Source of the DNA: Azolla caroliniana
Taxonomy: Eukaryota; Plantae; Polypodiophyta
Direction: 5' to 3'
Length of the DNA: 64,000 nt
Assembly (NCBI GenBank): GCA_043228905.1
Contig: JBHGNT010000014.1
Location: forward strand, 7,750,001 to 7,814,000
Shown one piece after another: positions 20,217 to 63,932 of this stretch. The notes under the pieces are model-generated. The model had not been told where the DNA came from, did not search any database, and saw only the letters and a program-made list of their open reading frames with translations. The position numbers and the translations under genes were made by a program. Each line of letters opens with the position of its first letter. Position 1 is the first letter of the stretch.

Positions 20217-21035
20217 CATGTCCGTCATTTCGAATTTGCTATAGAGGAGGGACTGGACCTTGTTGATGTCGATGAGACTTTCACCTCCAATTACCATATC
20301 AACCATATATAGGATGATGACAATTGGGCTTTCAGAGTCGTTTCATACGTAGATGGAGTTGTCAGATTTCGACATTCAAAAGCCGATTCGATGAAGATAT
20401 TGTGTTAGATATAATCAATGATCAGCCCCAAGTTGTAAATGTTACCCGTTCCTTTGGGTGACACCTTCGATAGACCTGAGGTTATCGGTAGCAAAGGATG
20501 TGTTACGTGAAGGCTCGTAAACAGAGGCGTCGTGAGGTAGAAAATAATTCGAGATGGAACACTAGTGAGATCTTGATAGGCGTGGACGGCACTTAATTCA
20601 GAAACACGAGAGAAAACACAGACTCATGGAGCAAGATGGGCACAATAAAAGATATGTATTAATGCGACAGCAAAAGGGTTACAGAGCGCGGCCTACGACC
20701 GGTGACCTTACAATAGTATCTAATTACGATGGAATTTGCTAGTGCTTCCGCCTATACTTTTTCTACTCCCTCTCTGAGGTACTCGACTTTGTTTAAATAA
20801 CGTTTCCCCTAATACACAGCCGAGCCGTCGGTGGCCCGTGATACTCGGACTCAGCGCTCGTTGGCGTTCTTTCCTACTCGGTTACACTACCGCCGTTTGC
20901 TAATTTCCTAATTTACATTTCTGTCCTCTTGACAACACCTGCCACGCCCGTGGGACAAGACCTTGTCCGTCGGACCCACGACTTACAAAATACTAACAAC
21001 ATTACAAAAATTGCCTTTTAGGCATGATCCTCGTT

Positions 21036-24000
21036 TCATTCCTCTTCTAAGATGTCGAGGATGTTTTCGAGGTCTGGGGTGGTGGCAGGGTGGTTTGGTT
21101 GGACTGTCGGTGCGGGGGGTTGAGTTTGGTCCTGGGGTGTCATATCCTCTCGGGCATCCGCCTCAGGTGCGGCTGATTCGTCTGGTGGTGGTGTGGGTTC
21201 GAGGGGGCTGACCTCTACTTCGATTGGATCTGGTACCATGTGGGCGTCCTCGGGAGGTCTGTTGGCCGGGGCGAGCTCCTTCTGTGCCGTGTCCGTGATC
21301 TCCTCGCTGGGAGGTTCTTCCTTCTACTCTGTGGCCATTGGAGGGCTGGTTGGGATGGCTGTGAGTCGTTCTCGTTCGAGGGCTTCTGCTTCCAGGCGAA
21401 ACAACATCTGATCGTCATTGAAGTCCTCCAGCATTTGCTCGATTGCCGCGGTGTGAGATTTCGCCAAGGACTGGTAATCCTCGGTTAAATCTGCACGGAG
21501 GTTTTGTATGTTGGCTTCGTCCATTTTGTAAAAGCCGCGGCCCTCCTTCCGTCGGTTCTCGGCATCGGCGCGTAAAATATGCAATTCGGCAGCTTGGGCT
21601 GCCCATTCTTCTCTTGCGCGACTTAATGTTTCCTCGACCTTTTTGGTGAGGTGCTGGCGCTATTTCTCGATCAGTATTCTAATGCGTGGCTCATCCATGC
21701 TGGGCTGTGCTCGGATGGCTGCCAATTCCTCCTTTAAGCCGTTGACCTCGGCCTGAAGCTTCTTTGCGAGTAGTTCATAGGTAGCTTGAGTGTTCTTTGC
21801 ATCTGTGATTACGAGCTGGATAGACTGCTCATAATGCTTGGTGAGCTCTTCGGTAGTTTTCTCCCATTCTTTTTGACACGCGGCCCGGACTTGTTCCCGT
21901 TCGACGATTCTCTCTTCTTGTAGGGCGAGGTAGGAATCAAATAATTCGTCTTTTTGCTCCAAAAGTAGCTTGTATTTGATGAAAAACTCGTCAGCCATTT
22001 CTTTAAGGGTCGTACGCTGACTCTCAGCTCGGCATTCTCCGCGATCATTCTCTCCTCCCGTTGGCGATTTCTTTCCTCCTGCCGGTGGTTCCAATCTTTC
22101 GCATTGTCGAGCGCGGACTGTAGGTCTAGGACCTCCTTCTCTTTCTCTGCCACTGTGGCCGTGTATTCCTCCAACTTGCTTTTGAGTTCTGCTTCTTTGC
22201 CCGCGGCTTGCGCTTGTACCCGACCTAGTGCTTCATTCTGCTCGTGTATCCTTTGGTCGACCTGGGCTCTAATCTCGGCCATCCGTTTGGAAGCTTCTTC
22301 TTTTAAGCGAGCCATGGCCTCTTGATGCCGTGGTTCGTGTCTCTTGGTCCGCCGTTGTTCTTCTTTAAGCTCCACTCGGTAATCTCGGAGTGGGGGTTCT
22401 GTCTGGGTTGCCACCTCCTTTGGTGGACGAGGGGGTGGCGTCTCGGTCTTCTCCATGGGCATGGCCGCCTCGGTTGTTGTGCAGGCATCGACCATTTGTA
22501 ACGAGTCCATTAGTGTGTTGGCCTAGATCGTCAGGATTGAATCCGTGACGGTGCTTTCATCTATCATTGTTATGCGTGGAAGGGCTGGGAGGGCCTCGGT
22601 GGTCGTGGCCGGAAGGCTCAAGAGTTGTTGTTCTGGCCGGTTTTGCTCCTAGGCTGCCAGTTTCCGTTTCGCAGCGTGCCATAACTCCGAGCCACCTTAG
22701 CCTGTTTTTGGGTTGTTTTTATCTTTCAGGCCATGTCTTTGGCTGCCCGCGTAGTGCGATCCAGGTCCCTATATGCCTCGATGAGGGCCGTGTTCAACTC
22801 GGGGACCTCCATGAGGAGAGCGGCCTGTTTTGCCTGCTTCCTCCTGCCTATTTTTTGTAAAGCCCTGTCGTCGTTGGGCTCAATTTCACCTAATAGCGCG
22901 CATTGAATCATTTCTGTTTCGGCGTGCTCTTCCGCCATTCGAGCGGCTGCCGCGACTTGGGCTCTGGCGAGGAAGTCGACCAGCTCAAATGTCGTACCGA
23001 GGCGTAGGAGCGCACTAAATTCGCATGCCTCTACGGGGAGGTCTTTATAACCGAGGACTTCATCCTCCGAGATCTGCGTTGTCTACCCATGCTTGATCTT
23101 TCCCTGGTTCAATGATGCCTCCACAGGGATGATGGTCAGGTTGTTCTGGCTGACAACTAAGGCTTGCTCCTGTTGTGGCTCTTTCTGTTCTGCCAAGGAC
23201 TCGCGGTTGAGTCGTCTTTTCTTGCTCGGCTGGGTTTGGGGTTCCGGGGCCGGTGGTGTCGTTTCCTCCGCCTTCTTCCTTTTCTGGGGTCGTGGTGGTG
23301 CTGCCTGCTGTGTGTTGGGCCGTGGGCTAGGCTCTGGGGGAGTTACCGAGGGACGCGGCATTGGCTGTCGAATGGTGACATCGTCTCCTTCTCCCAATCT
23401 TGGCAGGTCTCGGGAACTGCCCTGTTTTGTTGGGGTTGGGTGGGTGGTGGTGCCGATGTGGGGTTTTGGTCGGCGGCAGGAGGTGAAGGCGGTGTGGGCT
23501 CTTCCCATACTTCGTGGCTGATGGCAACCAATTTCTCTCTCTGCCTTCGTGGTGGTGGTGGGGACGTGAGTGTCCGAGGGGAAGGAAGAGAAGAGGGCGG
23601 GTATAGAACCGTCAAAAAGTGGGTAAGAACAGACAACATCTTCTTACCTAACTGGAATGAGGCTGGAATGAGGCTAAGGCGGCGTGGAGTCCTTCGGTTG
23701 TGATGATTCCCCAGTCGACTCTGTTTCCTTCATACGCGTTGATGATGATGGCTGCCTTTTTCTGCGGCATGCTCGTCAGGTTCGTATGCACGAACGCATA
23801 CTCCATCAATATACGAGCAATCTCCCCAAAAGCTCTGTTGGGACCGCCATACGTGCGATATGCCTTCCCTGAGGCTGAGTACTCACCGAAGTACTCTTTC
23901 AGCTTCGATGCCGGGGGTATGTCGACCTCATGGTCCCCTCCCCGTTGCAGGTCCAAAGCAACCCGAAGCACGTTGTTGGTGATGGCTTCGGGACAAATAC

Positions 24001-24115
24001 GTCTAGCCACTCCTTGGGCATTCGGGTGTGCGGGGGCATCGATGATCTTCAGGTAACCGCCCATTCCTCGTTCCTGGAGCCAGGTGCGGGTTTCTGTTGA
24101 AGCGGTAAGAGGCAT
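21036..24115 (-). pseudogene. Gyp1 additional ORF (~1000 codons, fragmented): globular N-terminal domain, Pro-rich linker, long coiled coil
   Basis: Collinear ORFs 23648-24115, 23343-23639, 23083-23508, 22726-22938, 21809-22510, 21660-22094, 21324-21584 and 21036-21239. ATG in ccaccATG context. Confidence 0.75.
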
Positions 24116-24632
24116 GGTGGAGATGGAGACGGGGTTTGACTATGTGGAAGAGTGAGGAAGAGTGATGAGGCGAGGGCGAGATAGAGGAGGAACAACAGGA
24201 AGGGGAAGCTTGGCAGAGGGGCTATGAGAGTGAAAGAGGGCTTGAGAGCAAGAGCGTTTAGAGTGATGAGAGCGAGAAGGGGCTTCTGAGCTTGAGAGCG
24301 ATGGAGGTTGGGAGCGATAATGAACTTCTGTGTATGTGCTGCGTTTTGGAAACGGTTTTAGTAACTTACTCCTAGGGTTTTGTGCCCGAAGCGAATCCTG
24401 AAGATTCTGAGTCGTGGGTGCCATAATAAGTGACTAGGGCCACGTGTCCTGAAGGTGAGTGGGGTGCTTCGAGTGCTTTGCATGTGCTTAAATAGGTACT
24501 AAATGAGAGGTGGCTAGGGGTGCTCCTAAATTGTGGGTGCCTAGGTGGGTGGTGTAGGTGTAGCTAATCGGCGGCTAAACTATGGTTAATCCTACCTACT
24601 TTATTAATTTCAAAAAGGTGGGTGAGTCCTTA

Positions 24633-27600
24633 TTAAGGGGGACACATGGCCTCCTCCGTGGTGGTCTCCCGAATCTTGTTTGTGACGTGTGGCTCGGTAA
24701 ACGGGTTGGGTGCTGTAGTGCCTCGATATGGTCGAAGTCGGAAACCATTGGCCCAACTTTTGATAGTGTCGCCGGCGAGTGTGCCGAGCTGGAACGTCCC
24801 GTTGAACTCGTCGATAATCCAGAATGGACCGGTCCACCGAAATCGTAATTTTCCCGGCATTGACCCGAGTCGTGTTTGAAAAAGAAGAACCGGTTTGCCG
24901 GTGGTGAGCTCCTTCTCCAGCCCGTTTCAATGTCGATCCACGAAAGCCTTGCGTTGTCATTGGCGTTGTTCGAGCTGGGCCATACTCTCTATCCTGTCTT
25001 CGCCGAGTTCGAGGAGTTGTTCCAGCTGGTATTGCTCGGATTGGGCCTCGGGGAGCCATGCTTTGACTTGAACTCGGAGGCTCGGGACTTGGAACTCGAC
25101 GGGCATTACGGCTTCTAACCCGAACGCCATTCGAAAGGGGGTTGATTGGATGCTTGTTTTGAAAGTCGTACGATACACCCACAATGTGCTCTGGAGTTTG
25201 TCATCCCAATCGGTCCTGTTTTCATTGACGATCTTCTTCAGTATGGTTTGGAGGATTTTATTGGTCGATTCCGCCAAGCCGTTCGCCTGCGGGTAGTATG
25301 GTGTGCTTTTCTTGTGCACCACCGCGTAGTGGTGTGTAAGCTCACGTATTATATGATTGATGAAGTGCCCACCTTGGTCACTAACGAGCTTGATTGGGCA
25401 TCTGTAATGGCACCAAAGATGCTCGTACACGAATTTAGCCGTGGATGCTGCCGTGTTGTCTCGGAGTGCCTTAGCCTCGACCCATTTGGTATAGTAGTCC
25501 GTGGCCACGATAATGTACCTATTCCCTGTACGGGCCGCGGGTGGCTTGAAAGGGCCTACAAAATCCAAACCCCATTTTTGAAATGGGTCAAATGGAAGAA
25601 TCAGCTGGTGTGGCATGCGTGACTGTTCCATTGGTTGCCCCAATCGTTGGCACAAATCGCACTGCCGGCAAAACTCGTGAGCGTCTCTCTTCGTTATCGG
25701 CCACCACAATCCGCTTTGCCAAACCTTCCTTGCCATGGAATCCCCGACGTAGTGCCCCCCGGCTACTCCCTGGTGGGCCTCTTGAAGAATGACGTTCTTC
25801 TCGAATTGCTGAATCGCTCGGCGCCATATGCTGTCCGAGCCTTTGTGGTAGAGAATGTCCGAGACGAGGCAAATATTCCGGCTACGCACTGCTAGGCGTT
25901 TCCCCTTGTCAAAGGGCATGTGCTCGGGAGGTAAACCGGTAGTGAGAAAATGGGTCATCTCCGTGATCCATTCATCTTCGTTATCGTCTGGCATCGTGGT
26001 CAGGTTAAATAGGCTGGCGTCCGGTAGCTCGTCGTACGTTGTTTCCGCCGGTTCCCCTGACTCAAGACGGCTCAAGTAGTCGGCGACGGCGTGTTGTACC
26101 CCGGGTCGATGCTGAATCTGGAAATCAAATTCTTGGAGTAGGAGCATCCACCGAGCCAACCGTCCGGTGAGGGCTTGTTTATTGACCAAATAAAGAAGGG
26201 CCGAGTGATCCACGTGAAAGGTAAACTTCCGGCCCAAGAGGTAATGCCGGAATTTATTGATGCTATAAATCATACCGAGGGCCTCCCGCTCGGTGGTGGA
26301 GTAATTCTTTTCCATAGTTGAGAGCCGTCGGCTGGCGTAGTACATGGGCCTATACCAATTCGGGGGTGTGCATTGCATCAGGGCACTTCCGATGGCGATG
26401 TCCGAAGCATCTACGAAGACATGAAACGGTTCAGACCAAACTGGAGGCTGGACCACCGGGGCATGTGAGAGCATTAGTTTCAGGGTCTGATAGGCCGTGT
26501 CCTTGATTGACGTCCATTGGAAGGGAAGGCGATGGACTGCCGCGTGTAAAGGTGTCGTGAAATCCGCTAGATGCCATATCATTCGGCTGTGCCACCGGAT
26601 TTGTTCCAAAAATCGGCTTAGTGCCTTTGCGTTCGAGGGTGCGGGGGCGGTGAGGATGGCCTTTACTTTATCCGGGTCCATAGCGATGCCTTCTTGGTTG
26701 ACAATGTGGTCGAGAAGGTTGCCGCTGGTGACTAAGAACGCGCATTTCGCAGGGTTTAAGCTCAATCGAGCTTGGCGACATCGGTCCAGGCAGAGTCGTA
26801 ACTGGGTCATGTGTTCCCGTCGATGGCCATACACAGCGAAATCGTCGAGAAAGACTTGCATGAACGCCGGGATGTAGTCATGAAAGATTTCGGTGATGAT
26901 GCGTTGGAACGTAGCCAACACCGTTTTTAGACCGAACATCATTACTTCTGCCACAAAAACACCCCATTCCGTGACGAAAGCGGTTTTCTCCCGATCCTCC
27001 GGGTGCATTCTTATCTGGTTATAGCCACTGAACCTGTCAAGGCCGGCTACCGTGTCGAGGACGCTGTCCGTGAATGGGAGAGGGAAACCGTCGGTGACTG
27101 TTGCCGTGTTAAGCTTCTGATAGTCGATGTAGACGCGGATTTTTCCGTTCTTCTTTGGGACTACTACGATCGGGCTTAACCACGTGGCCCATTTAACAGG
27201 GCGAATGAAGCCCACTCGGAGTAGTTTGTCGATTTCCTCTTTGACTTTAGCGGCGTAGTTGGGGTTCATCCTGTAGCGCCTCTGCTGAACCGGCCGAGTG
27301 TCGGGTAAGAGGTGGATTTGATGTTGGTAGTAGTGAGGATCCAACCCCTTCATATCGGTGTAAGACCAAGCGAAAACATCCTGGTAGTCCGTGACCAACC
27401 GTACGAGGGATGCCCGTTCTCCAGGTTGGTAGATTATTGGCAATTTGTAACATACGGGGATTCTCGTCCGAGCCGAGGTTTATTGTTTCCAGGGTTGATG
27501 CTTTGACTCGTTGTGAAATGGCGAGTTCACGTTCGAAAGCATCCCGAGCATGGCGTAGCTCGACAACTATGGTTGGATCTGGTTCATCTTGAGGTGGTGA

Positions 27601-30291
27601 TTCCTCCGTGACTTCTTCGTCTTTAGGTGGCTCGATGGTTGGTATGGCATTGATTTCGAAGAGAGGGATGATCGTGGGATGATCATCTAGGAAGTCATCG
27701 ACCTCCTCATCGGCCAAACCGTTAAGCATATGGACCCCTTCCGCGTATAATGGCGAAGTGTTGAGGGCCACGGGCACTCGTTCTTCAGTGATGATTCGGA
27801 CTTTTGTCTTGCCTCTTCAGAACGAGATCATGTTGCATTGCCAATGCTGCTTGATATTCGCTGTACGCAACCATGGTCGACCTAGTAACATTGGGTAGGC
27901 GCCTTGTGTCTCTAGTCTTAGTACGACGGCCGAGATCGTGAACATGTGGCCTCTGAGTGTGAAGTCGAGATGGAGGATTAAACCAATGGGGCTAACAGAG
28001 CGGGTGTCGGCCATCCAAAGCCAAAAGGGGCATGGTTCCCATTGATTTAGGCCGAGGTTGTGACACGTTGACTCGCTAATAACGTTTACGCCGGATCCGC
28101 CGTCGATGATGCATCCGTGCAGGTCTTGTCCCTTAATGATGATTCGCACGGCTGGGTTCTGAGAATCCATGAGTGGTGGACCTGTGCCTACTTCGGTGAG
28201 GTGTACTGGTGGCGTCAAGGGCTTAGTATTGGCCTGGAGTACCGCTAGGGTGTCCCGAAATCTCGGCATGAGTGGTAACAGTTTATGTAGGGGCAGTGAG
28301 ATGCGGGAGTTGGTAAGAACATCCCATAGTTGGTCGTCCTCCGACGACGTGGATGGTACCGAGGTTTGTGGTGCTTCGATGGGCACGTCTCTCATGTCAG
28401 TTTGCATGCGCACGACATTCTTTTTATTGGCCATGTCGATCCATTCTTTTGCTGCCTAATGGACTTCATCCTGGCTTTGCCACTGTGTAGTCTGCGCTTT
28501 ACTCCGGGTAGTGACGGTTTGAACATCGGCCATGATACTGTTCACCGCAGGTGCTTTGCCACGGTCGGTTGTTGGGCATTGCGTGGCATAGTGGCCGAGT
28601 TGGTTACATTTAAAACACGTAACGTTGGCCAAGTTGCTGGTGTCAGCCCGGTCTGTGTGTGGGAGCTGTTGCAGTTGATTCCTTGTCTCGTTTGGTGGTG
28701 GGTTGGTCCGAGGTGCATTGGTGTTCCGCTGGTCGTTTGGAGGAGCCTCTTGTTGGCGGTTGTCGTTGTTCCTTCTATTGTTGCGGTTTCCGTTTCGCCG
28801 ATCGTTACGTGAGTTCCTCCGATCATACCTGTCATCCCGATCATCGTCGTAATGATCATAATCGTCGTTTCGGTCGTCGCGATAGCGATCCCAGCGGTCA
28901 TCTTGACGGTAATCGTCGTCCCGGCGTCGTCTATCCGGTGATCGTGGGCGATCGTTATCGTTGTCTCGGTAGGAATTACGCTCATCCTGTCGAGAGTACG
29001 TGTTCCTGGGCTCGATCTGGCGAACTGGTGTGGTCGTAGTGCGATTGAGCATGTTGTACTCGCATTGTTCGACGGTGTGAGATCGTGATTGGCAAATTGG
29101 ACACTGTGGGCAATGAGGACATTCAAGAGCCAGGTGACCCAAGCCTGAACAGATCGTGCATTGGAGGTCTTGGCGAAAGCGGTTGTCCTCCTATGGAAGG
29201 GCATTCTGTAGGGAGGTCATAGAGAAGGCCGCACCGTGTTGGGATCGATCGAGGGCGAGGACTCACGTTATGACTTCCTCGATAGTTTGGTTGCCAAAAT
29301 TTGTAAGTGCGAGAGTCGTTCGGAGAGGCTCTCGTAAACTGGACAGGAAAGTGTCTGGTATATGTTGTGCCGAGACATCGTCGGCCACTTGTCTGTAGAG
29401 ATCCTGGAACCGGATCGTGAACTACGCGACCGTTTCGTGCGGTTCTTGGCATATCGAGAAGAATTGCCGGAGCAGTTCCCGTTTGGGCACCTCGCGATGA
29501 AAGAGTTCAGGGTGAAAGCATGCGAATGGAAACACTATTATAGCTATTTAGCTGCTAAAATGACCACAGCTAAATAGTTTTTTTATAGCTAATTTTTAGT
29601 AGGAAGATCTTAAAGATATGTATCATTTATTATGGAGATGGAAATATTACCATTTATGGTCCACCGTTTAGCTAGTCTTTTTCTGAGATCAAATTCTAAT
29701 CATCCCTAAATTTGCCAAAATATACAAATTACATGTAGCTTTTTAGATAGTTAATTAGCTATGTCAAGGAGATAGCTAATTGTTCCCATTCCCATGCTTT
29801 CACCCTTCAAGGAACTTTGTGTGCACGATTTGGAAGGTGGTTCCCTCTCCTAGTTCAAGGCGAGAGTACCATCGTGCGGCCGGTCCATCGAGGGAGAGTG
29901 TGAACTCGGCAATCTTTGAGGCATCGATTTCGGCCGGCGTGAGGCGGTGCGTTGAGTGGTTGGCCTGCCACATAGATATGAAGGCACAAATGTGTCACTC
30001 CGCATCTGGTCCGTCGGTGTAACGTGGGTATGGGTACGGCATGATGTACTCTGGGTCTTCTGGTAGCACCGGGAAAGGGTTTAGTTCCGGTTGAGTGACC
30101 TCCGAAGGGCTTGGCGGGGGTTGTGGTGGGGAATCAATTCCTGATTGAGTGTCCGGTGGCGAGGATTGCACTGGGGGAGCCTCCGATTGCTCGGGAAAGG
30201 ATTGGTCAGTGACCGCCGAGTCGGAAGTTCCTTCGACTGGCTCAGGGCGTCGGGTAGATGGCCGAGACCTCGTGGTGCGAGAGGGTGCCAT
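24633..30291 (-). pseudogene. gag-pol: Gyp1 gag-pol
   Basis: gag from 30291, CCHC knuckles, protease IIDGGSGVN (27817-28434). The 828-aa ORF 24957-27443 has RT (FLDD), RH (DAS..NYSTTERE) and INT (HHCC, WGLDF). GPF motif at 24633-24860. Confidence 0.95.
29510..29805. mobile_element. 296-bp non-autonomous TIR element (MITE) with 4-bp TSD TTCA
   Basis: 25-bp TIRs gggtgaaagcatg(c/g)gaatgg(a/g)aaca with 2 mismatches. ttca at 29506-29509 and 29806-29809. Removing it restores the gag frame (HTKFLELFHREVP). Confidence 0.93.
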
Positions 30292-33200
30292 AACAGCAGC
30301 TGGTGGTTACCTTCAACGAAGTTCGCTATGCACTCACATCTGTAACTGGGCATGCCAAATTGTGTTACCTGTTCCTTTGGGTGACACCTTCGATAGACCT
30401 GAGGTTATCGGTAGCAAAGGATGTGTTACGTGAAGGCTCGTAAACAGAGGCATCGTGAGGTAGAAAATAATACGAGATGGAATACTAGTGAGATCTTGAT
30501 AGGCGTGGATGGCACTTAATTCAGAAACACGGGAGAAAACAGACTCATGGAGCAAGATGGGCACAATAACAGATATGTATTAATGCGACAACAAAAGGGT
30601 TACAGAGCGCGGCCTACGGCCGGTGACCTTACAATAGTATCTAATTACGATGGAATTTGCTAGTGCTTCCACCTATACTTTTTCTACTCCCTCTCTGAGG
30701 TACTCGACCTTGTTTAAATAACGTTTCCCCTAATACACAACCGAGCCGTCGGTGGCCCGTGATACTTGGACTCGGCGCTCGCTAGCGTTCTTTCCTACTC
30801 GGTTACACTACCGCCGTTTGCTAATTTCCTAATTTACATTTCTGTCCTTTGGACAACAGTAAATCTATCCCCATATATGCTCTTAGAGTGCACATTTTGT
30901 GCTAGCGTCGCAAATGAGGACCGGCTAGTGTGCAACTTGACTACATGGGTAGAACACAATGAATTTAGGAAAGAGTGAAATAGGTAATAGGATTGGCTAA
31001 TCAAGTAAACTAGAATATTTTGTGGGCAAGTTACAATGTACTTAGTCTTGAAGTATGTGCCATTGACTTCAAGATAAGTACTATCTAGCACTAGCCTATA
31101 TCTAGGGAGTTGGGTCATATTAAATGACAAGTCAGTTGACAAAAAATGAATATCTCCACTACTATCAACTTACAGCACATTTAATGTTACACTCAGACCA
31201 AACAGAGAATATAATCCACTCTCTTACACAATGGTGTATTGATCATCAGTCCCCACTAATTTTGTAGTGAGTTGGTCCAGATCCCATCTAAGCTCTAAAG
31301 TGTGAGCGCATGGGTGAACTACCATTGTGAGCTACTCTCATATGTAATAGAAGTTTTGTTTTCATATATCCATCTTTGTGGTTGTAACTCTATATACCTA
31401 TCTAATCGATTCTCAATATTTGTAACACGTGGTGCTTGCTTGAGACCATAGAGTGGCTTCTTCAGTCGGCAGACTGCTTTCGGATGGATGCTTGATTCGA
31501 AACCAGGTGATTGCACCATGTACCCCCTGTTGTAATTCGCCTTGAAGAAAGGTATTCTTTACATCCATTTGATAGAGGTGCCACCCTTTCGCTGATGCGA
31601 GTGCAATCAAGGTCCGCACAGTCATCATCTTTGCCACCGGGGCAAAGGTCTCTTCATAGTTGACTCCATGTGTTTGTGCGTATCCTTTCGCTACGAGTCG
31701 AGCTTTGTGGCGGTTGATAGAGCCGTCGACATTATACTTCACCTTGTAAATCCATCTGTAACCGATTGCCTTCTTGTGCGGTGAGTAGGGAACGAGATCC
31801 CATGTCTCATTCTTGCATAGTGCCTGCACCTCCTCGTTCATTGCTTTGACTCATCGTGGATCCTTGGTTGCTTCCGAAAAACATTCCGGTTCTCGAACTC
31901 TCGCCACCTTCATCATAAAGTCATAGTGGTATGCCATATAAACATTGTGGCTGAATCGGGTAACCGGATTCTTCTCACGGGTGGAGCGACGAAGATTTTC
32001 GTTTTCCGTGGCAATGGCTTTCTTTATGCCAGGTGTCCTCATGATAGGTACATCGAAGCCACCAAATTCACTGTCAAGGGAGTGAGTTGTTTCGTTGCCG
32101 TCTAATTGATCGTCTTCATATTCTGGCATTTTCTCCTTACCTTTGTCCATCTTCGGACTAGGCCGAGATGTGCTTTGGTCGCTCGGGGGCTCTTGTGGGC
32201 CCACTAAGCCTTGTCGTAATCGGGCTTTCTTCGAACATATGTTCGAGTTAAACTCCATCTTCTATCTCTTGTTCAGCGGATTCCGGGTTGGCTAGACATG
32301 ATTCGGGAGGACTCAAGAGTCGGCTTGGGTTTGTACCATGATGCCGATTCGTCGGGGATGTGTACATATGCAATGGAGTCGAATATTTGAACATATGATA
32401 GATCTAACCTCTTTCCGAAAAACTTATTGTGGAGGGTAACCTCATGCACGCTCAATGTTGTACACCGGTTCATTAGGTAGATGGTTGTGTTAGAGGCTTT
32501 TGCCAAGTACGACTTTGGCATGTGCGATCTTGTTAAGCATGGCCTGTGCTACTTCGAGGATGTGCCAATTCTTTTGTTCGACTACTCCGTTCTGTTGTGG
32601 TGTAGGTCAACATGAAAACTCTCGCCAAATTCCTTCTTTTTGGAGAAAACCCGAAAATTCGTTGGAGAAGTAATATTTTCCTCCATCCAACCAAAGACAT
32701 CGTACATGACGGTTGTTTGTCTTTTCGACTTCGCTTTTGAATTTCTGAAAGTGTCTGAACACTTCGCTCTTTTGCCGCATGGGGTAGATCTAGGTGTGCC
32801 TGGAGAAATCGTCGATAAAGGCCATGTAGTATCGGCATCCGCCGAATGTAGCCATTTGAGCTGATCCCCATGCATCGGAATGAATTACGTTGACTACGCC
32901 TTTGATTACGTTCCTCTCCTTTGGAAACGGGTGTCGATGTTGCTTGCCGAATTGGCAGGCTGCACATACTCCTTCAATCTCTTTCTCTTTGAAGATCCGG
33001 AGTCCGATGAAGACTCCTTTCGATTGCATGGCCTTGAGCTTTTGGAGGTTTATGTGGCCAATCCGGTTGTGCCACAACTCTATATCGGTGTCGGTTTTGA
33101 TGCCTTTTGCAAACATTGACGATTTCATCTCGTGCGAGTCGAGAATGAACATTTGTCACTCTCTTCATCCACGAGCGATGAGTCGACCCTCTTTCTTGAT

Positions 33201-43545: not shown

Positions 43546-46500
43546 GTGGCCCATGTGACAGAAAACACACTTAGGATGACCTTATGGAATTGTAACGGCG
43601 CACTCTGGGCACACCCCGGCCGCCTAGAGGGGATATTAAAGGAATCAAATATAGTTTGCCTAGTAGAAACACACCAAAGCCCAAATAGGGGACTCCCACG
43701 AGTCGAAGGATTTCGTTGGGAGTTGGCTTTTAGACAAACATCACGTCGATGAACTACCAGGGGATCTGGAGGTGTTGCAATATTGGTTTGGAGGGAGCTA
43801 CATAATAGGATAGAAATACTAAGCACAGACCCAAAAGCTCGTTTTATGTGGGTAAAAGTCTCCACAAGCAAGGACAAGGCAGTATTTTTCGTCATTTGTT
43901 ACTTCCCCCCGAAAGGCTCTCGTTATAATCTGGCTGGCGAGGCGAGATTAGTTGATGAAGGAGTGCCACATGGGCCTTCCCCATATGAACCTCTATCAGA
44001 TGACATAATCCGATATTCTTCCCAAGGAGAAGTATTCCTTGTAGGAGACTTTAATGCGAGAACCCAATCCCGACAATGCACAATATTTCAAATGAATAGA
44101 AACCTAGAAATGGTAAATGTCAATCCTATAGACATAGACACCACACGTAGATCAAAGGATCAAGGTGCGGATGCCACGAGCTTTGGCCATCATTTGCTCG
44201 AACTTGGCAGTCGGCACCAGATGGTCATATATAATGGTTTAGCCAAGTGGCCAGGTTCGGAAGAGCTCACATGTTTCCCACATGGAGGAGGAGAAAGCAC
44301 AATTGATTATCTAATAGGACGCCCTGAAGCTACCCACATGATTAACTCCTTCCGAGTGGCCCCATGTCCTATTGGCGCGGACCATAGTTTCTTATACTTC
44401 GAGCTAAAATGCGATATCTCTAACGTAACCAACTCTAGTCAACCACGCCATGACATCACAATACATTCCACACATGAGCTCTCTAACATATATGCTCAAC
44501 ATGTTCAAGCACATCTCTCCTCCCTTGATCCCTCCCTACCTTTAGAGAGCCTTAGTACGAAACTCACACACATCCTTCACTCTACAACAGTTAGTAGTTT
44601 ACCATTCATTAAACACTCCAATCAAGGTAAAGTAGGATCTATGCCACAAAATAGATGGTATGATGAGGATTGTAGGTGGTTACATAGACAACTTACAATA
44701 TCGCAACTCAGTGGTAGTATTACCTCAGTACAAGCTCGTAAAGAAATGCGCAAGATGACACGTCGTAAGAGACGAGCATGGGAGGCATCCCAATATTGGG
44801 AACTATACCATATGCTCATGAGTAGCGATTGTGCCACTGCATGGAAGAGATTACGGGAACCAAGACCACAAACACCCATCGAAGATCCTGAAACTTGGCA
44901 CACTTATACAGAGAGACTTTACCAAATCCCAAACCAACCACCCATTCCAATGCCTTCTACACCCCAACCTATTGTGGGAACACTCTTCACGACCTCTAGG
45001 GTCATGAAGGTCATAAAGAAATTACAACATAGGAAGTCCACGGACCACATAGGATTGTGAGCAGAACACATCATATATGCGAGAGAGTGCCTAGCTCCCT
45101 TGCTAACTCTAATCTTCAATCGTGCCCTCGCAGAGGGTTTTCCACCACAATGGACCATGAACACAGTGGCCCCCATACATAAGGGGGGGGACCCCATGGA
45201 CCCAAATACTTATAGGACCATTATGATAGGTCATACCCTTGCTAAATTATATGGTGCAGTAATGGAGGCAGAGCTTAGCGATTATATGGAGACCTTAAAT
45301 CTTCGTGCACCTGAACAGGCTGGCATTAGACGAGCCTTCTCCACTATTGATCATATCTTCACATTTAGATGCTTAATTGACCAGACTAAGGCTCGCAAGA
45401 AGAAACTATATTGTTGTTTTGTGGACTTCCGCAAAGCCTTGGACATGGTCCCTAGAGAGCGGTTGTTTGATAGGCTTAAGAGCTTGAGGATACCAGATGA
45501 CATGGTTTGGGCCATCTACGCACTATATGAACAAGTGTCTGTGTGTGTTCGATGCCCAGGTGGCATATCCGATAGTTTCACTAGCACTATTGGTGTAAAA
45601 CAAGGTTGCCCCTTGTCTCTGACTCTTTTTGGGATCTACATTGATGAGATCACAGATTTTATTGCTCGTAAGGGAGGTAATGGAGTAGTCCTTGGGGATA
45701 CGCATGTGCGTATCTTGCTCTATGCCGATGACATAGTTTTGCTCTCTGAATCCGAACACGACCTACAAAGGCACCTTAATGCCTTAGATGACTTTTGCAC
45801 ACAATGAGGATTGGTAGTGAATCTAGGGAAAACTAAAGTCCTTATCTTCCACACGTCGGCCCAAGTTAGAGCTAAGTGTCACATAACTATCTCCCATAGC
45901 CCAGTTGAGGTGGTTGGATCATATGTCTATCTCGGAGTCACTTTCAGTGCCCGCTTAGGTAAATTTTCGATGACACAAGTAGCGAAGGATAGACTTACAA
46001 GAGGACATACATCCCTCTCACTCCTCAAGAGACAATGCCACCAAGCATACTTCCAAGAGCCACAAACTAAAGGGTGGCTCTTTGACTCATAAGTGACTCC
46101 CTCTCTTATGTATGCATTAGCGGTTTGGGCTCCAGGACTACCGTCTTTCATGTGGACGCAATTAGAGAGACCATTGGTGATGATCTTATCACGCCAACTC
46201 TGAAGCAAATCGTCGCTCCCACATGACATTATTAGGGCTGAGTTCACTCTACCTCCTATGTTAGTAGAAGCACTTTTTCAACTTGTAGTCTTTATCCATA
46301 GGATACATAACCAACCGCAAATCGTCGGTCCCACATGACATTATTAGGGTTGAGTTCACTCTACCCCCTATGTCAGTAGAAGCACTTTTTCAACTTGTAG
46401 TCTTTATCCACAGGATACATAACCAACCGCAAATTTGTCGGTCCCACATGACATTATTAGGGCTGAGTTCACTCTACCCCCTATGTTAGTAGAAGCACTT

Positions 46501-47514
46501 TTTCAACTTGTAGTCTTTATCCTAAGGATACATAACCAACCACTTGATAGAATATACCATCAAGCCTTTAAGGCTTCTCGAGCACTATATGAGTCCGGCT
46601 ATACTAGCTCATGGTATGGCATGATGGTGAGTTGGCTTCTTGCCAACGGTCTAGACATTAATAAGCTCCTCCCCCTTAAGTATGACCACACGACTGATAA
46701 TACTTTAATCTCTCATGAGGACCGTAATAAAGTAATACGCCAAGAAATATGGCAAATTTATACTCGGTATAAATGGATCACCCCACTAGAGCCACTCCTA
46801 TCTAAAATGTCGTACTATAAGGAACACTTTATGCACTTCTCTAAGTTAGGTTTTTTCACGCGACCAAGATATCTAAATGTAATCTTACCACATGCACTAA
46901 GGGTTGCCATTGGTCAACTTAGAATTTCATCTCACCAACTTGAGATTGAGAATGGATGTACTAATGGAGTCCCTAGGGAGGAAAGGATATGTAGGTTATG
47001 CCACATAGAGATAGAGGATGAGTACCATTTTACATGCAAATGCCCCACCTATGCCGAGATAAGGGCAAAATACCAAGACATACTTGGTTCCTCTCCCACC
47101 CTCCCTAAACTATTAGATACGCTAGATATAAAGAAATTAGGTAGATACATCTTAGAATTGAAACAACACAGAGAGAATAAGTTACAAAAAGTTGATAATA
47201 ATGTTGCTAATGTTTACCAACATGTAACAAATGAAGTTTTTCAGGAACAGGGGGAGACAATGAATGTCGACACACTTGCATCACTCGGGCTTTTCCTTGA
47301 TGAAGCAGAAAATCAAAGAAGAACCAAACGCCCTTGGATGTCGGGTTTAAAAGCAACTCAACGAGATGTCGAAGCAATAAAGAAAATAAGGGAACGTGAA
47401 CTACACCGTCTAGAAGCCATGGCTAGGGCACTCTATGCATCGGGACCATGGGTCACACCCACACCAAAAACTTTTGATCTTCCACTTCTTTCTGAGAGAC
47501 TTGGGTGGAAATGA
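43546..47514 (+). pseudogene. LINE ORF2 (endonuclease-RT-Cys/His domain), disrupted
   Basis: ORFs 43546-43752, 43783-45060, 45100-45807, 45811-46092 and 46435-47514, separated by single stops and a triplication. Confidence 0.9.
46205..46541 (+). repeat. 112-bp tandem triplication inside LINE ORF2
   Basis: Near-identical units start at 46205, 46317 and 46429. Confidence 0.95.
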
Positions 47515-60932: not shown

Positions 60933-61435
60933 TTTCTGTGTCGAACCTCGCTCTGATACCACTTGACGGGAACTCAAACGCTCCTTATGCACTAAGCTCG
61001 GCCACAACCGAGATTCTTTTCATACACAGAAAAAACAGGAAACGAAAAACACGACACAAAGAGGAGAAAGATACATAGGAGGTTTACGTGGAAAACCCCA
61101 AACTGGGGGGAAAAACCACGGCAGCCCGCGCAAACTGTCACTATGTAAGAATGTACAAAACAATGAGTTCACGGAGGCAACGACCTCGTGCTCACGATCT
61201 TCGCCACAGGCGGCGGTTACAACAGAGGCAATGACCTCTTTCTCTCTCTCTCTCTCTCTCTCTCTTTGTACAGTTACGCACACTCTCTATTCTTGCACCA
61301 ACAAGAATGACAACAACAACTAAAAGTTTGCCCTAAGTCATATTTATACTAATATGACTTTTCGGCTATTTACAAATATAGCCTCGATGGGCTCTCAGAA
61401 ACATATTTACGAATATGTCTCTTCCTCCGATTCTC

Positions 61436-61690
61436 ACCGGGTCTGCGTCATCCGGCTCTCCGTAGCCGGGTACTCCTCATCCGGTTCATACCAGGCCTGT
61501 ATCATCCGGCTCTCCGTAGTCGGGTACTCCTCATCCGGTTCATACCGGGCCTGTATCATCTGGCTCTCCGTAGCCGGGTACTCCTCATCCGGTTCATACC
61601 GGGTCTGCACCATCCGGTTCTCCGTAACCGGGTACTCCTCATCCGGTTCTCACCGGGCCTGTATCATCCGGCTCTCCATAGCCGGGTCCA
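61436..61690. repeat. 54-bp tandem array (dimer of 29+25-bp subunits) in the Cop11 LTR
   Basis: About 4.5 copies of catccggctctccgtagccgggtactcct-catccggttcataccgggcctgtat. Confidence 0.92.
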
Positions 61691-61774
61691 CCTCATACGG
61701 ATTCGGCCTCGGCCGAGTTTGTTTGTCGGCACTGTTCTTCTCCCTTCCCATCCGGAGGGACCTGTCTCCCAACA

Positions 61775-62010: not shown

Positions 62011-63400
62011 GGGCATTCGAGGAGTTTTGAAAACCTAAGGGCATCCGAAGAATTTCGAAAAACATGATGGCGTTGTCAAAATTTTAAAAAATCAAAGGGC
62101 ACCTACGAAATGTCGAAAACTCATGAACCTAAAAGAAACAGACGTGATTGACACACAACTCACAAAATCAACAAAAGGAACACACATACATACAACGTTT
62201 TTTTGACGACCCAAATGATGTTACCGAATTTCGTGAACTGACAGAACGGGAATGTTCGTGTCGCAGAAGATTTGCTGACCGACAGAGATGTTCGAGTCAA
62301 GCGCTCCGATCGAGGGAGTCGATCGTTGAGAGGACTGATGGAAATTCCGGTCGAAGAAAAATTATGATCAAGGCATGTGGGATCGACGTGCAAGGCACTC
62401 TCCCACAGGCGTGCCATATTGTGTTACCGTACGAGACGTACGTGTGATTCATAAGTGTGATAAGTGAGATTGAACGATGTAATGCGTTGATATGTATGTG
62501 AGTGTGAATGTAAGTGTGAGTGTGGTGGATACAAAGAGGTGTGAGTAAGTGACTAGGTGTGAATGCCCAAGGGGCTTGCACCCTTGTGGATCTACCCCTT
62601 TGTACCTATTTAACCCCTTATGGGGAATGAATGAAAAGAAATAACCATTTCTCTCTCAATCTCTCTCTCTCTTGTCATCTCTTTCTCCCTCTCTCTCTCT
62701 CCCCTTTAACGTTGAACCCCTTGGGAGGGGGGTGGAGCCATTCTAGGCACCACCCCCCACCCCGCAATGCTTCTCTACATGATCTCTCTCACCATCATAC
62801 TCTCCATCACCATGTTTATCTTCATTAATCTACCATGATTGTTAACCCTATTCCTATCTTTATCATTATCACCATTAACCCTAACCCTAAAACATACAAC
62901 AGTACTGATCCTCCTCTACCTCTAGTACTAATTCCCTCTCCATCTTTAGTACTATTCCTGGCAGTTTGAACCGAATTTCTCTATCTTTTTACTCCTCCCT
63001 TCCTTCATACTAATCCTCTTATCCTTCCTTTCTCCAATACTATGGCAACTGTTAGCGCTCAAGAATATCAATCTATTTTCTCGTAGTTGCAATGCTTGAA
63101 AAAAATGTTTCTCGCATTGGAACAAGAAAATCAATGGTTGTTGGGGGATCTTCAACAAATCTCTTTAGAAAAGCAGCAAACGCAACAGCAACATGGGGAG
63201 CTAGCATTACGCGTTGTTGTGAAGTACGAAAGTTTCACATTAAAAGTCTACAATAAGATGAATACGTAACTAAAATAAAATTTGATAATGTTTTATATAT
63301 AAAGATAATATTAACAACACATATGATAATATTATATATATGTAAAGAAAAATCATATATATATATATAGATAAATATATTATATTACACGAACAAGAGA

Positions 63401-63932
63401 GGACTTGAACCAATAACCCCACCCTATGACTTTCAAATCTTACCATTTACTCTATACTAATAATATATATAAGATAAAGGATTTGCTTCATGATATAAAA
63501 AAAACGTTACATGTTGTATTCAATAATATTTGAGAGACTCGAACCCACAACCTCATATACCAAAGTCAACACACCTACCATTAAGCTAGGTCCTACGTTT
63601 TTTTTAACTATATTTTCATGTTCATTCTTATCCCCATATATTTTTTCATACATGAAAGCTCAAATGAGCGAGATGCCTATCATGCATCACATGCATTTCA
63701 TGCACTACATGCATGACTTGTACCCTCCAATGCATCATATGCATGGGGGCATCTATTTAAATGGGGAAAGAGAAGATCAAAGGGGGAGGGGTATGAGATA
63801 TCAATCAAATATATATTACATAAGAGATACCATAAAATAGAAAAAGAAAGGAAGAAGTTCAACATAAAGGTGGAGCTCTAGCTTGGTGATCGTGATGGTC
63901 AACTTGCAACAAGAGGTAGGCGGTTCGAGTCT
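63401..63932. other. Cluster of three degenerate tRNA-like A/B-box cassettes (63401-63455 minus, 63535-63588 minus, 63879-63932 plus)
   Basis: B-boxes ggttcaagtcc, ggttcgagtct and ggttcgagtct, each ~43 nt from an A-box-like motif (tagcttaatgg is a perfect match). Stems are poorly paired. Confidence 0.55.

Follow-up and report, generated by a model that had tools for sequence, protein, structure and literature searches.

PMC5371799 and PMC10886601, as far as these were available, present the polypurine tract (PPT) as the primer from which LTR retrotransposons and retroviruses universally start their plus strand. For PPT priming the former describes as established that the 3' end of the plus-strand primer sets the left edge of the LTR. 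Among the plant Ty3/gypsy lineages other than chromoviruses, Phygy and Selgy have target-site duplications (TSD) of 4 bp, primer-binding sites (PBS) for tRNA-Trp or tRNA-Ala and an internal region of short length, and the usual PBS of Athila is directed to tRNA-Asp, tRNA-Asn or tRNA-Ala, which is typical rather than strict (PMC6317226 with Additional file 5, in the available part). The lineages of that paper are described there by PBS type, without mention of a tRNA-like 3' site in the same available part. A term search of the accessible text on Troyka (PMC12440569) gave no mention of tRNA, PBS or PPT, and our literature search, with subscription journals and large supplements mostly outside it, found no description of a tRNA-like site that replaces the PPT.

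The element analysed here is a Ty3/gypsy copy of 10.4 kb on the minus strand of the window, by which we mean the whole stretch of 64,000 nucleotides under analysis. It is bounded by LTRs of the TG...CA type at 30363..30858 (5' LTR) and 20440..20937 (3' LTR), both on the minus strand and 96% identical, and by a TSD, GTAAA, at 20435..20439 on the left and 30859..30863 on the right. The PBS at 30345..30357 (minus strand) is directed to tRNA-Arg(UCU) and lies 5 nt from the 5' LTR; it comprises 13 nt in intact copies, two bases being decayed here. According to Pfam the pol frame at 24957..27479 (minus strand) encodes reverse transcriptase (RT), RNase H and integrase in the gypsy order; a second RNase H was not detected. 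Its translation shows what we take to be the four acidic residues of RNase H. A stop-interrupted region at 27817..29190 (minus strand) holds the C-terminal zinc knuckle of gag and the protease, the latter without a Pfam match and presumed from its motif. On the 3' side of pol (21035..24140, minus strand) follow extra sense-strand frames with stops and frameshifts and without Pfam match; homologous pieces of this region of ca. 3 kb occur in related families. Since gag, protease and the extra region are broken by stops and frameshifts, the window copy is a decayed one. The surrounding parts, 1-20400 and 31400-61700, are densely nested with fragments, mostly of copia, that lie in both orientations, and the window further holds a LINE-like endonuclease/RT region (43753-45807) and tandem repeats (46205-46541 and 61419-61754).

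The order of RT, RNase H and integrase, the TG...CA LTRs, the TSD and the PBS for a host tRNA are Ty3/gypsy (Metaviridae) traits, and the same domain order was found by Pfam in the related proteins P0001 and P0005. A chromovirus is ruled out by the absence of a chromodomain after the integrase, Pfam having found none in the full-length relatives P0001, P0005, P0008 and P0014. Only gypsy RNase H models match, by which OTA|Tat (TatI-III, Ogre, Retand) is ruled out, and Phygy and Selgy are excluded by the 5-bp TSD, the Arg PBS and the extra 3' region of 3 kb. Homologs from named sources (liverworts, a fern and a conifer gene set) are 41-51% identical, the closer ones, with 57-78% identity, being metagenome proteins; a non-seed land plant is the probable host. 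A FastTree phylogeny of 59 rows was built by choosing among 120 listed homologs and adding the window and an outgroup; its references are unlabelled or named by species. The window groups there with P0001-P0010 in a well-supported clade, to which P0005 also links L129, a relative discussed below that is 93% identical to it; the tree places the window in no named lineage.

Canonical PPT-primed replication does not apply to this element, as no polypurine tract directly precedes the 3' LTR. The position is occupied by a 40-nt cassette, a sense copy of positions 49-76 of tRNA-Arg(UCU) including the CCA end, which stops 2 nt before the 3' LTR. In the direction of the element it consists of a copy of tRNA positions 49-58 (5' strand of the T-stem and T-loop; 20970..20979, with C for U55 in the window's family), a 13-nt insert between positions 58 and 59 that forms a hairpin and shows compensatory changes (20957..20969), and a copy of positions 59-76 from which one acceptor base is absent (20940..20956, with 20942 decayed in the window copy); the 2-nt spacer from the CCA end to the TG of the LTR occupies 20938..20939 (all on the minus strand). 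The LTR-proximal part has the classic primer-binding length of 18 nt minus one base, and on the plus strand of the window, which corresponds to the minus-strand cDNA, 20940..20956 reads as a second, inward-facing primer-binding site. The initial annotation had placed PBS-like sites facing inward at both ends, the 3' one 2 nt from the LTR, and letters and coordinates agree with this; it had also likened the site to a tRNA-Arg T-arm plus acceptor strand with an insert of about 13 nt. ARAGORN names the tRNA as Arg(TCT), and the insert measures exactly 13 nt.

The tRNA was identified as tRNA-Arg(TCT) by ARAGORN from plant gene copies, with 70 such calls in the retrieved loci; the reference tRNA is the gene copy L101, which shares its assembly series with the cassette loci and agrees with the captured copies described below. 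Aligned to the 3' half of tRNA-Arg, the 48-nt site scored better than all 20000 shuffles, and the match to host tRNA is thus above chance level, although an unrelated tRNA-like tile near 63520-63570 reached an equal score. The decayed tRNA-like stretch at 63515-63600 (minus strand), called by neither ARAGORN nor Rfam, is possibly a tRNA-derived SINE or a pseudogene. The 10-mer that pairs with the PBS is by itself not above chance: it has four one-mismatch matches in the 64-kb window where 2.38 are expected, and 23 of 100 shuffles gave equally many. ARAGORN called no tRNA over the 64-kb window, and an Rfam search gave no match for the cassette. Folding of the whole site is no better than that of shuffled sequences (z -0.29, and -0.8 in a second test), so the structural case for the cassette rests on covariation and not on energy.

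Conservation was assessed with a pattern scan of metagenome contigs, which covered 123 of about 270 matching stretches, and a fuzzy search that yielded 37 cassettes, two of them in the window. The scan pattern fixed letters of the T-stem and acceptor, which accounts for part of their constancy in the loci; the CCA complement and the CA of the LTR lay outside it. Among the matches of 37-38 nt listed, the CCA complement is present in 33 of 34, the LTR CA follows 2 nt past it in 32 of 34, and all 34 carry the one-base acceptor deletion. The cassette loci all stem from one assembly series and are taken together as a single source in addition to the three runs described below. Over genome contigs the pattern had 0 matches; the viral contigs contained no close relative and gave four pattern matches, with one phage-contig tRNA-Arg and zero cassettes. 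The LTRs beside the cassettes, compared in the 26 copies with sufficient sequence, form three main groups, between which no similarity was detected, and two small ones, and the spacer over the 37 cassettes is GG in 20, TG in 14 and another dinucleotide in 3. In 16 of 33 loci, upstream frame matches in sense direction show that the element carries the cassette at its 3' end, and none of the 33 has it at the 5' end; in two, frame matches beyond the LTR were assigned to neighbouring elements, the remainder being uninformative. None of the 37 cassettes lies behind the right end of an LTR.

In 36 aligned copies (23 distinct) the hairpin pairs in 96.8% of cells, as compared to 34-56% in slid controls, and three of its pairs are altered on both sides, counts that are inflated by relatedness among the aligned sequences. 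This alignment (A1) leaves out L082, which has a 41-nt cassette, and L062 was scored as a chance match. U55-to-C is the one common T-loop change (13 of 36 rows). The six-pair inner hairpin of the initial annotation hinges on base 20958, which is specific to the window copy; the family hairpin has a 4-bp stem, a 3-nt loop and two outer pairs.

A purine tract before the 3' LTR is found in none of the 37 cassettes: the purine share of the last 15 nt is 0.53-0.67 and the longest purine run is 3 in 35 of the 37, in agreement with the claim that no such tract adjoins the LTR. The other copies thus have no ordinary PPT, and they keep the whole 40 nt rather than a G-rich 12-mer alone. Among the controls, PPTs were present in two copia LTR pairs of the window and in seven of the eight gypsy loci that, out of 20 examined, had a resolvable LTR pair; the eighth is the closest relative, L129, with a tRNA tail instead of a PPT. 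The cassette is also retained in short non-coding derivatives (L005, L053, L030, L040 and L051). L030, L040, L051 and L088/L089 are non-coding units of ca. 2.2-2.3 kb with a 10-nt PBS and a full cassette; they lie in tandem and share their LTRs. The second, decayed cassette of the window (62377..62416, plus strand) precedes an LTR of the L030/L040 family, in a region (62377-62760, plus strand) where it stands 5 nt, not 2, ahead of the LTR TG and where the right end of the LTR looks truncated. Near that right end, at 62721-62765, lies a G/C-rich hairpin, to which Rfam gives weak miRNA matches far under the gathering score.

DNA runs of three species allowed the family state to be separated from decay of the window copy. 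G at 20942 accounts for 64402 of 64749, 55429 of 55719 and 131047 of 131645 of the depth and is also present in 5 of 5 RNA reads; with over 99% of depth, the CCA is intact in the family and the window copy is decayed there. The PBS bases 30347 and 30352 deviate from the window copy in 87-99.7% of depth. With the changes at 20942, 30347 and 30352 being decay of this copy, the family's PBS and cassette form a perfect match of 11 nt, and the pairing of 9 out of 10 with the PBS at 30348-30357 noted initially (8 Watson-Crick pairs, one G-U and one mismatch) holds for the letters, its G-U and mismatch being copy decay. The natural copies L020 and L078 have a PBS and 3' site that agree over 11 nt, and their PBS tracks the tRNA over 13 nt, departing from the cassette at bases 12-13. 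Depth, here summed contig depth and not copy number, has its maximum on the cassette, above both flanks, in all three DNA runs, without use of a pattern; the cassette therefore outlasts its flanks. In run X5 it reaches about 270000 on the cassette, and bins over 15 nt distant have no more than about 22500. Loose ends cluster at 20979-20981. RNA reads (38 and 12 at the two sites, 5 and 4 of them spanning, strandedness unknown) show no pile-up of read ends at cassette or PBS, which among 38 + 12 reads says nothing for or against cutting.

The relative L129 was found by a protein scan, independently of the cassette pattern, and is 59% identical in pol. It is a single copy with both LTRs (93% alike) and an imperfect TSD. 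Its PBS of 18 nt is directed to a different tRNA, presumably Arg(ACG), and matches Arg(UCU) at 11 of 18 positions. Before its 3' LTR stand a hairpin, a tRNA tail, CCA, 2 nt and the TG, with no PPT, and the tRNA position at which the hairpin closes is the one found in the window's family. Over its last 16 bases the tail agrees with the reference Arg(UCU) at 13 (p ca. 4e-6 at a fixed place), a match that suggests an Arg(UCU)-like tRNA for the 3' site; a search of the L129 contig revealed no plant tRNA gene. L129 keeps the 3' 16-18 nt and the junction hairpin but no T-stem in cis, its last 12 nt are not G-rich, and its PBS agrees with its 3' site at 10 of 18 positions, without a long helix. Pairing with the element's own PBS is therefore not required, as this one copy combines a mismatched PBS with tRNA tail, hairpin, CCA, 2 nt and TG. 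The element (4706-18466 of contig G001:C10) is a plant-type gypsy with an open frame of 2444 codons and extra frames at both ends. Its contig had been placed in the bin of a bacterial genome, and G002:C103 together with three contigs of G003 are likely similar contaminants. L130, L131 and the short G003 contigs stop before the 3' LTR, and no PBS was placed in them. Whichever primer acts, we are confident that the PPT has been replaced by a structured tRNA tail.

The minus-strand primer can be read from captured tRNA sequences. At five junctions (L005, L053, L107 and two in L108) the right end of the LTR or the spacer is followed by antisense tRNA-Arg, long or complete, and the copies captured at the PBSs carry CCA and no insert; they are best read as plus-strand read-through of the primer tRNA. 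Since these copies are of the real tRNA, it is the host tRNA, not the cassette, that would occupy the PBS. In L005 (1-1070, minus strand) the PBS is extended to a whole antisense tRNA-Arg (76 nt) and in L053 (minus strand) to half of one (ca. 37 nt), followed in both by ca. 430 nt of family 3' end, the cassette and the LTR; the two may be TRIM-like derivatives born of tRNA read-through. L107 and L108, on one contig, consist of tandem units of ca. 540 nt that run from an LTR through a 5-nt spacer, a complete antisense tRNA-Arg and 4 nt into an LTR, in which read-through plus-strand DNA likely switched template onto the cassette, with tandem amplification afterwards. Capture of a tRNA piece by read-through is likely the origin of the cassette as well. 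The spacing between PBS and LTR (30358-30362 in the window) is 5 nt in the window's family and 2 nt in other families, and trimming may therefore have to differ between the two ends of the cDNA.

The CCA end sits, with a 2-nt spacer that is free to vary, at the left edge of the LTR, from which we infer that the cassette defines the plus-strand start; taking the two leading models together, this is very probable on the sequence evidence. Of the three mechanisms initially proposed, tRNA priming of both strands would fit best. We lean, with some reserve, towards a second host tRNA that primes the plus strand on minus-strand DNA at an inverted site replacing the PPT. tRNA-Arg would prime the minus strand at the ordinary PBS, and after strand transfer RNase H would clear the RNA and leave the site single-stranded. 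A second tRNA would then pair with the site through two helices, one with tRNA positions 76-60 and one with 57-47; at the junction between them, where methylated A58 cannot pair, the DNA hairpin would stand. RT would extend the tRNA 3' end via the 2-nt spacer into U3, which would fix the left edge of the LTR, after which RNase H would remove the tRNA and integrase would trim the 2 nt. The fuller proposal, of a land-plant gypsy lineage without PPT in which host tRNAs start both cDNA strands through two inward-facing sites, possibly naming different tRNAs (cf. L129), with the 58/59 hairpin as a purpose-built junction for loading tRNA onto DNA, we consider evenly poised between right and wrong.

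The predicted pairing gain of the tRNA with the minus-DNA site is -27.5 kcal/mol (RNA parameters in place of hybrid ones), and the predicted complex is a three-way junction that keeps the hairpin at A58 in three families; with RNA parameters, the gains for the tRNA with the PBS and with the sense mimic are -15.7 and -7.3 kcal/mol, respectively. U55-to-C keeps a wobble pair with the tRNA and breaks the T-loop consensus. This gain, the wobble and the loss of the cis T-stem in L129 favour pairing of a tRNA on DNA. Against it stand the mismatches at tRNA position 59 (11 of 36 rows), the 13/16 match of L129, the competing pair of family PBS and sense mimic, which at a predicted -16.9 kcal/mol wins the three-strand fold, and the absence of exact captures before the left edge of the LTR, a context in which none of 14 TGG-preceded exact tRNA matches was found. 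The missing acceptor base also counts against it, as it costs a bulge with the tRNA and, by letting the pairing with the tRNA 5' end grow from 6 to 9 bases, suits a bridging model. Moreover, a tRNA-DNA hybrid is itself a substrate of RNase H.

The plus-strand primer may alternatively be the element's own tRNA-like RNA piece: RNase H would cut after the encoded CCA and the remnant would prime the plus strand in the manner of a PPT, with the hairpin slowing RT or shielding the piece. Geometry and final cDNA would be identical to those expected with a second tRNA, and an exact match to the host tRNA would be unneeded, which suits the missing base and the 13/16 match of L129. The covarying hairpin forms equally on RNA. 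Its non-standard pairs comprise 7 G-U (on RNA) and 4 G-T (on minus DNA) over 36 rows, or 7 of RNA type and 2 of DNA type over the 23 distinct rows; they lean towards RNA, not significantly, and do not favour the DNA strand. However, a mixed-base 11-17-mer is unlike known RNase H-resistant primers, the PPTs of Ty3 and HIV being all-purine in the available part of PMC5371799. With such a piece it would also go unexplained that the unpaired T-loop letters ahead of the hairpin keep tRNA identity (in part set by the pattern), as would the large predicted gain of the tRNA on the DNA strand. We regard this explanation as rather unlikely.

An improbable alternative is that the cassette acts in the genomic RNA, pairing either with the element's own PBS, by which the genome would be circularised or the site shielded, or with the freed 5' end of the tRNA in a Ty3-like bridge, and that an unrecognised short G-rich end primes the plus strand. 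The perfect 11-nt match of PBS and cassette in the family, with its predicted -16.9 kcal/mol, and the nine straight pairs with the tRNA 5' end that the missing base yields are in line with such a role, and the L108 junction suggests that the copied tRNA 5' end and the cassette share enough sequence for a template switch. It is contradicted by L129, in which the geometry is kept though PBS and 3' site form no long helix; the fixed 2-nt distance from CCA to LTR would be unexplained, and the gain of the tRNA with the sense mimic is small. Circularisation via the PBS, as suggested at the outset, is thus predicted to be energetically possible in the family but is not general, as the PBS of L129 does not match its 3' site.

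That the cassette is a frozen accident of reverse transcription, a captured tRNA piece whose last G-rich 12 nt serve as an odd PPT, is very improbable. Read-through and capture of tRNA do happen in the lineage, but three hairpin pairs changed on both sides with pairing in nearly all cells (inflated by relatedness), 40 nt kept while LTRs and flanks are unalignable, and the last 12 nt of L129 largely refute it. Least probable is the self-encoded minus-strand primer of the initial annotation, an RNA cut after CCA whose new end anneals to the PBS as in Tf1: the cassette is complementary to the PBS in the family, but the PBS follows the tRNA and not the cassette past base 11, the five read-through copies are of real tRNA without insert, no cassette lies behind an LTR right end, L129 does not fit, and a cut at CCA would remove the 3' R region.

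A high-copy, successful lineage with a tRNA end in place of the PPT shows that the plus-strand start can be rewired, and under either leading mechanism it provides a natural system for the choice of plus-strand primer by RT and RNase H. Annotation tools that need a PPT, or orient elements by the PBS, will miss or flip such copies. A U3 motif related to tRNA-Lys3 at the 3' end of the HIV-1 genome aids minus-strand transfer beside an intact PPT. The plus-strand primer of hepadnaviruses is not a PPT either; it is a piece of the genome 5' end, moved by translocation, and not a tRNA.

With the plant non-chromovirus lineages Athila, Tat/Ogre/Retand, Phygy and Selgy, as covered in the available part of Neumann et al. 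2019 (PMC6317226), the element has in common the lack of a chromodomain, a size of ca. 10.4 kb, the 5-bp TSD and extra frames 3' of pol. According to the same part of that source, its Arg PBS departs from the Athila norm and is shared with Ogre, TatIII and some Retand elements. The Helenus TRIMs, as far as described in the accessible text of Kojima 2024 (PMC10886601), also contain a tRNA-derived piece inside an LTR element, but there it is a Pol III promoter within the LTR, not complementary to the PBS, and the PPT is kept. Self-priming in Tf1, Tcn1 and TAR, as summarised in the available parts of PMC6317226 and PMC5371799, likewise involves a non-textbook primer; in those elements the minus-strand primer is replaced by one from the 5' end of the transcript, whereas here the minus-strand tRNA is kept and the PPT is replaced. 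The whole and partial tRNA copies captured at PBSs speak against self-priming of the Tf1 type. The available account of Ty3 of Saccharomyces cerevisiae (PMC5371799) is similar in domain order, in the short tRNA PBS, in a plus primer just upstream of U3 and in having tRNA-related sequence near the 3' end. In the split PBS described there, the 3' segment of the RNA is complementary to the tRNA, whereas in the present element the RNA has the sense of the tRNA and the complement is on minus-strand DNA; a Ty3-type split PBS is rejected on account of this wrong sense, only a match of 9-10 nt to the tRNA 5' end being possible. Ty3 has, in the same account, a 12-nt all-purine PPT, and the window element has no purine tract. 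A conserved, structured tRNA tail stands for the PPT in a multi-family plant gypsy lineage, dual tRNA priming being the likeliest mechanism, and the window element would work like Ty3 in all but its plus-strand primer.
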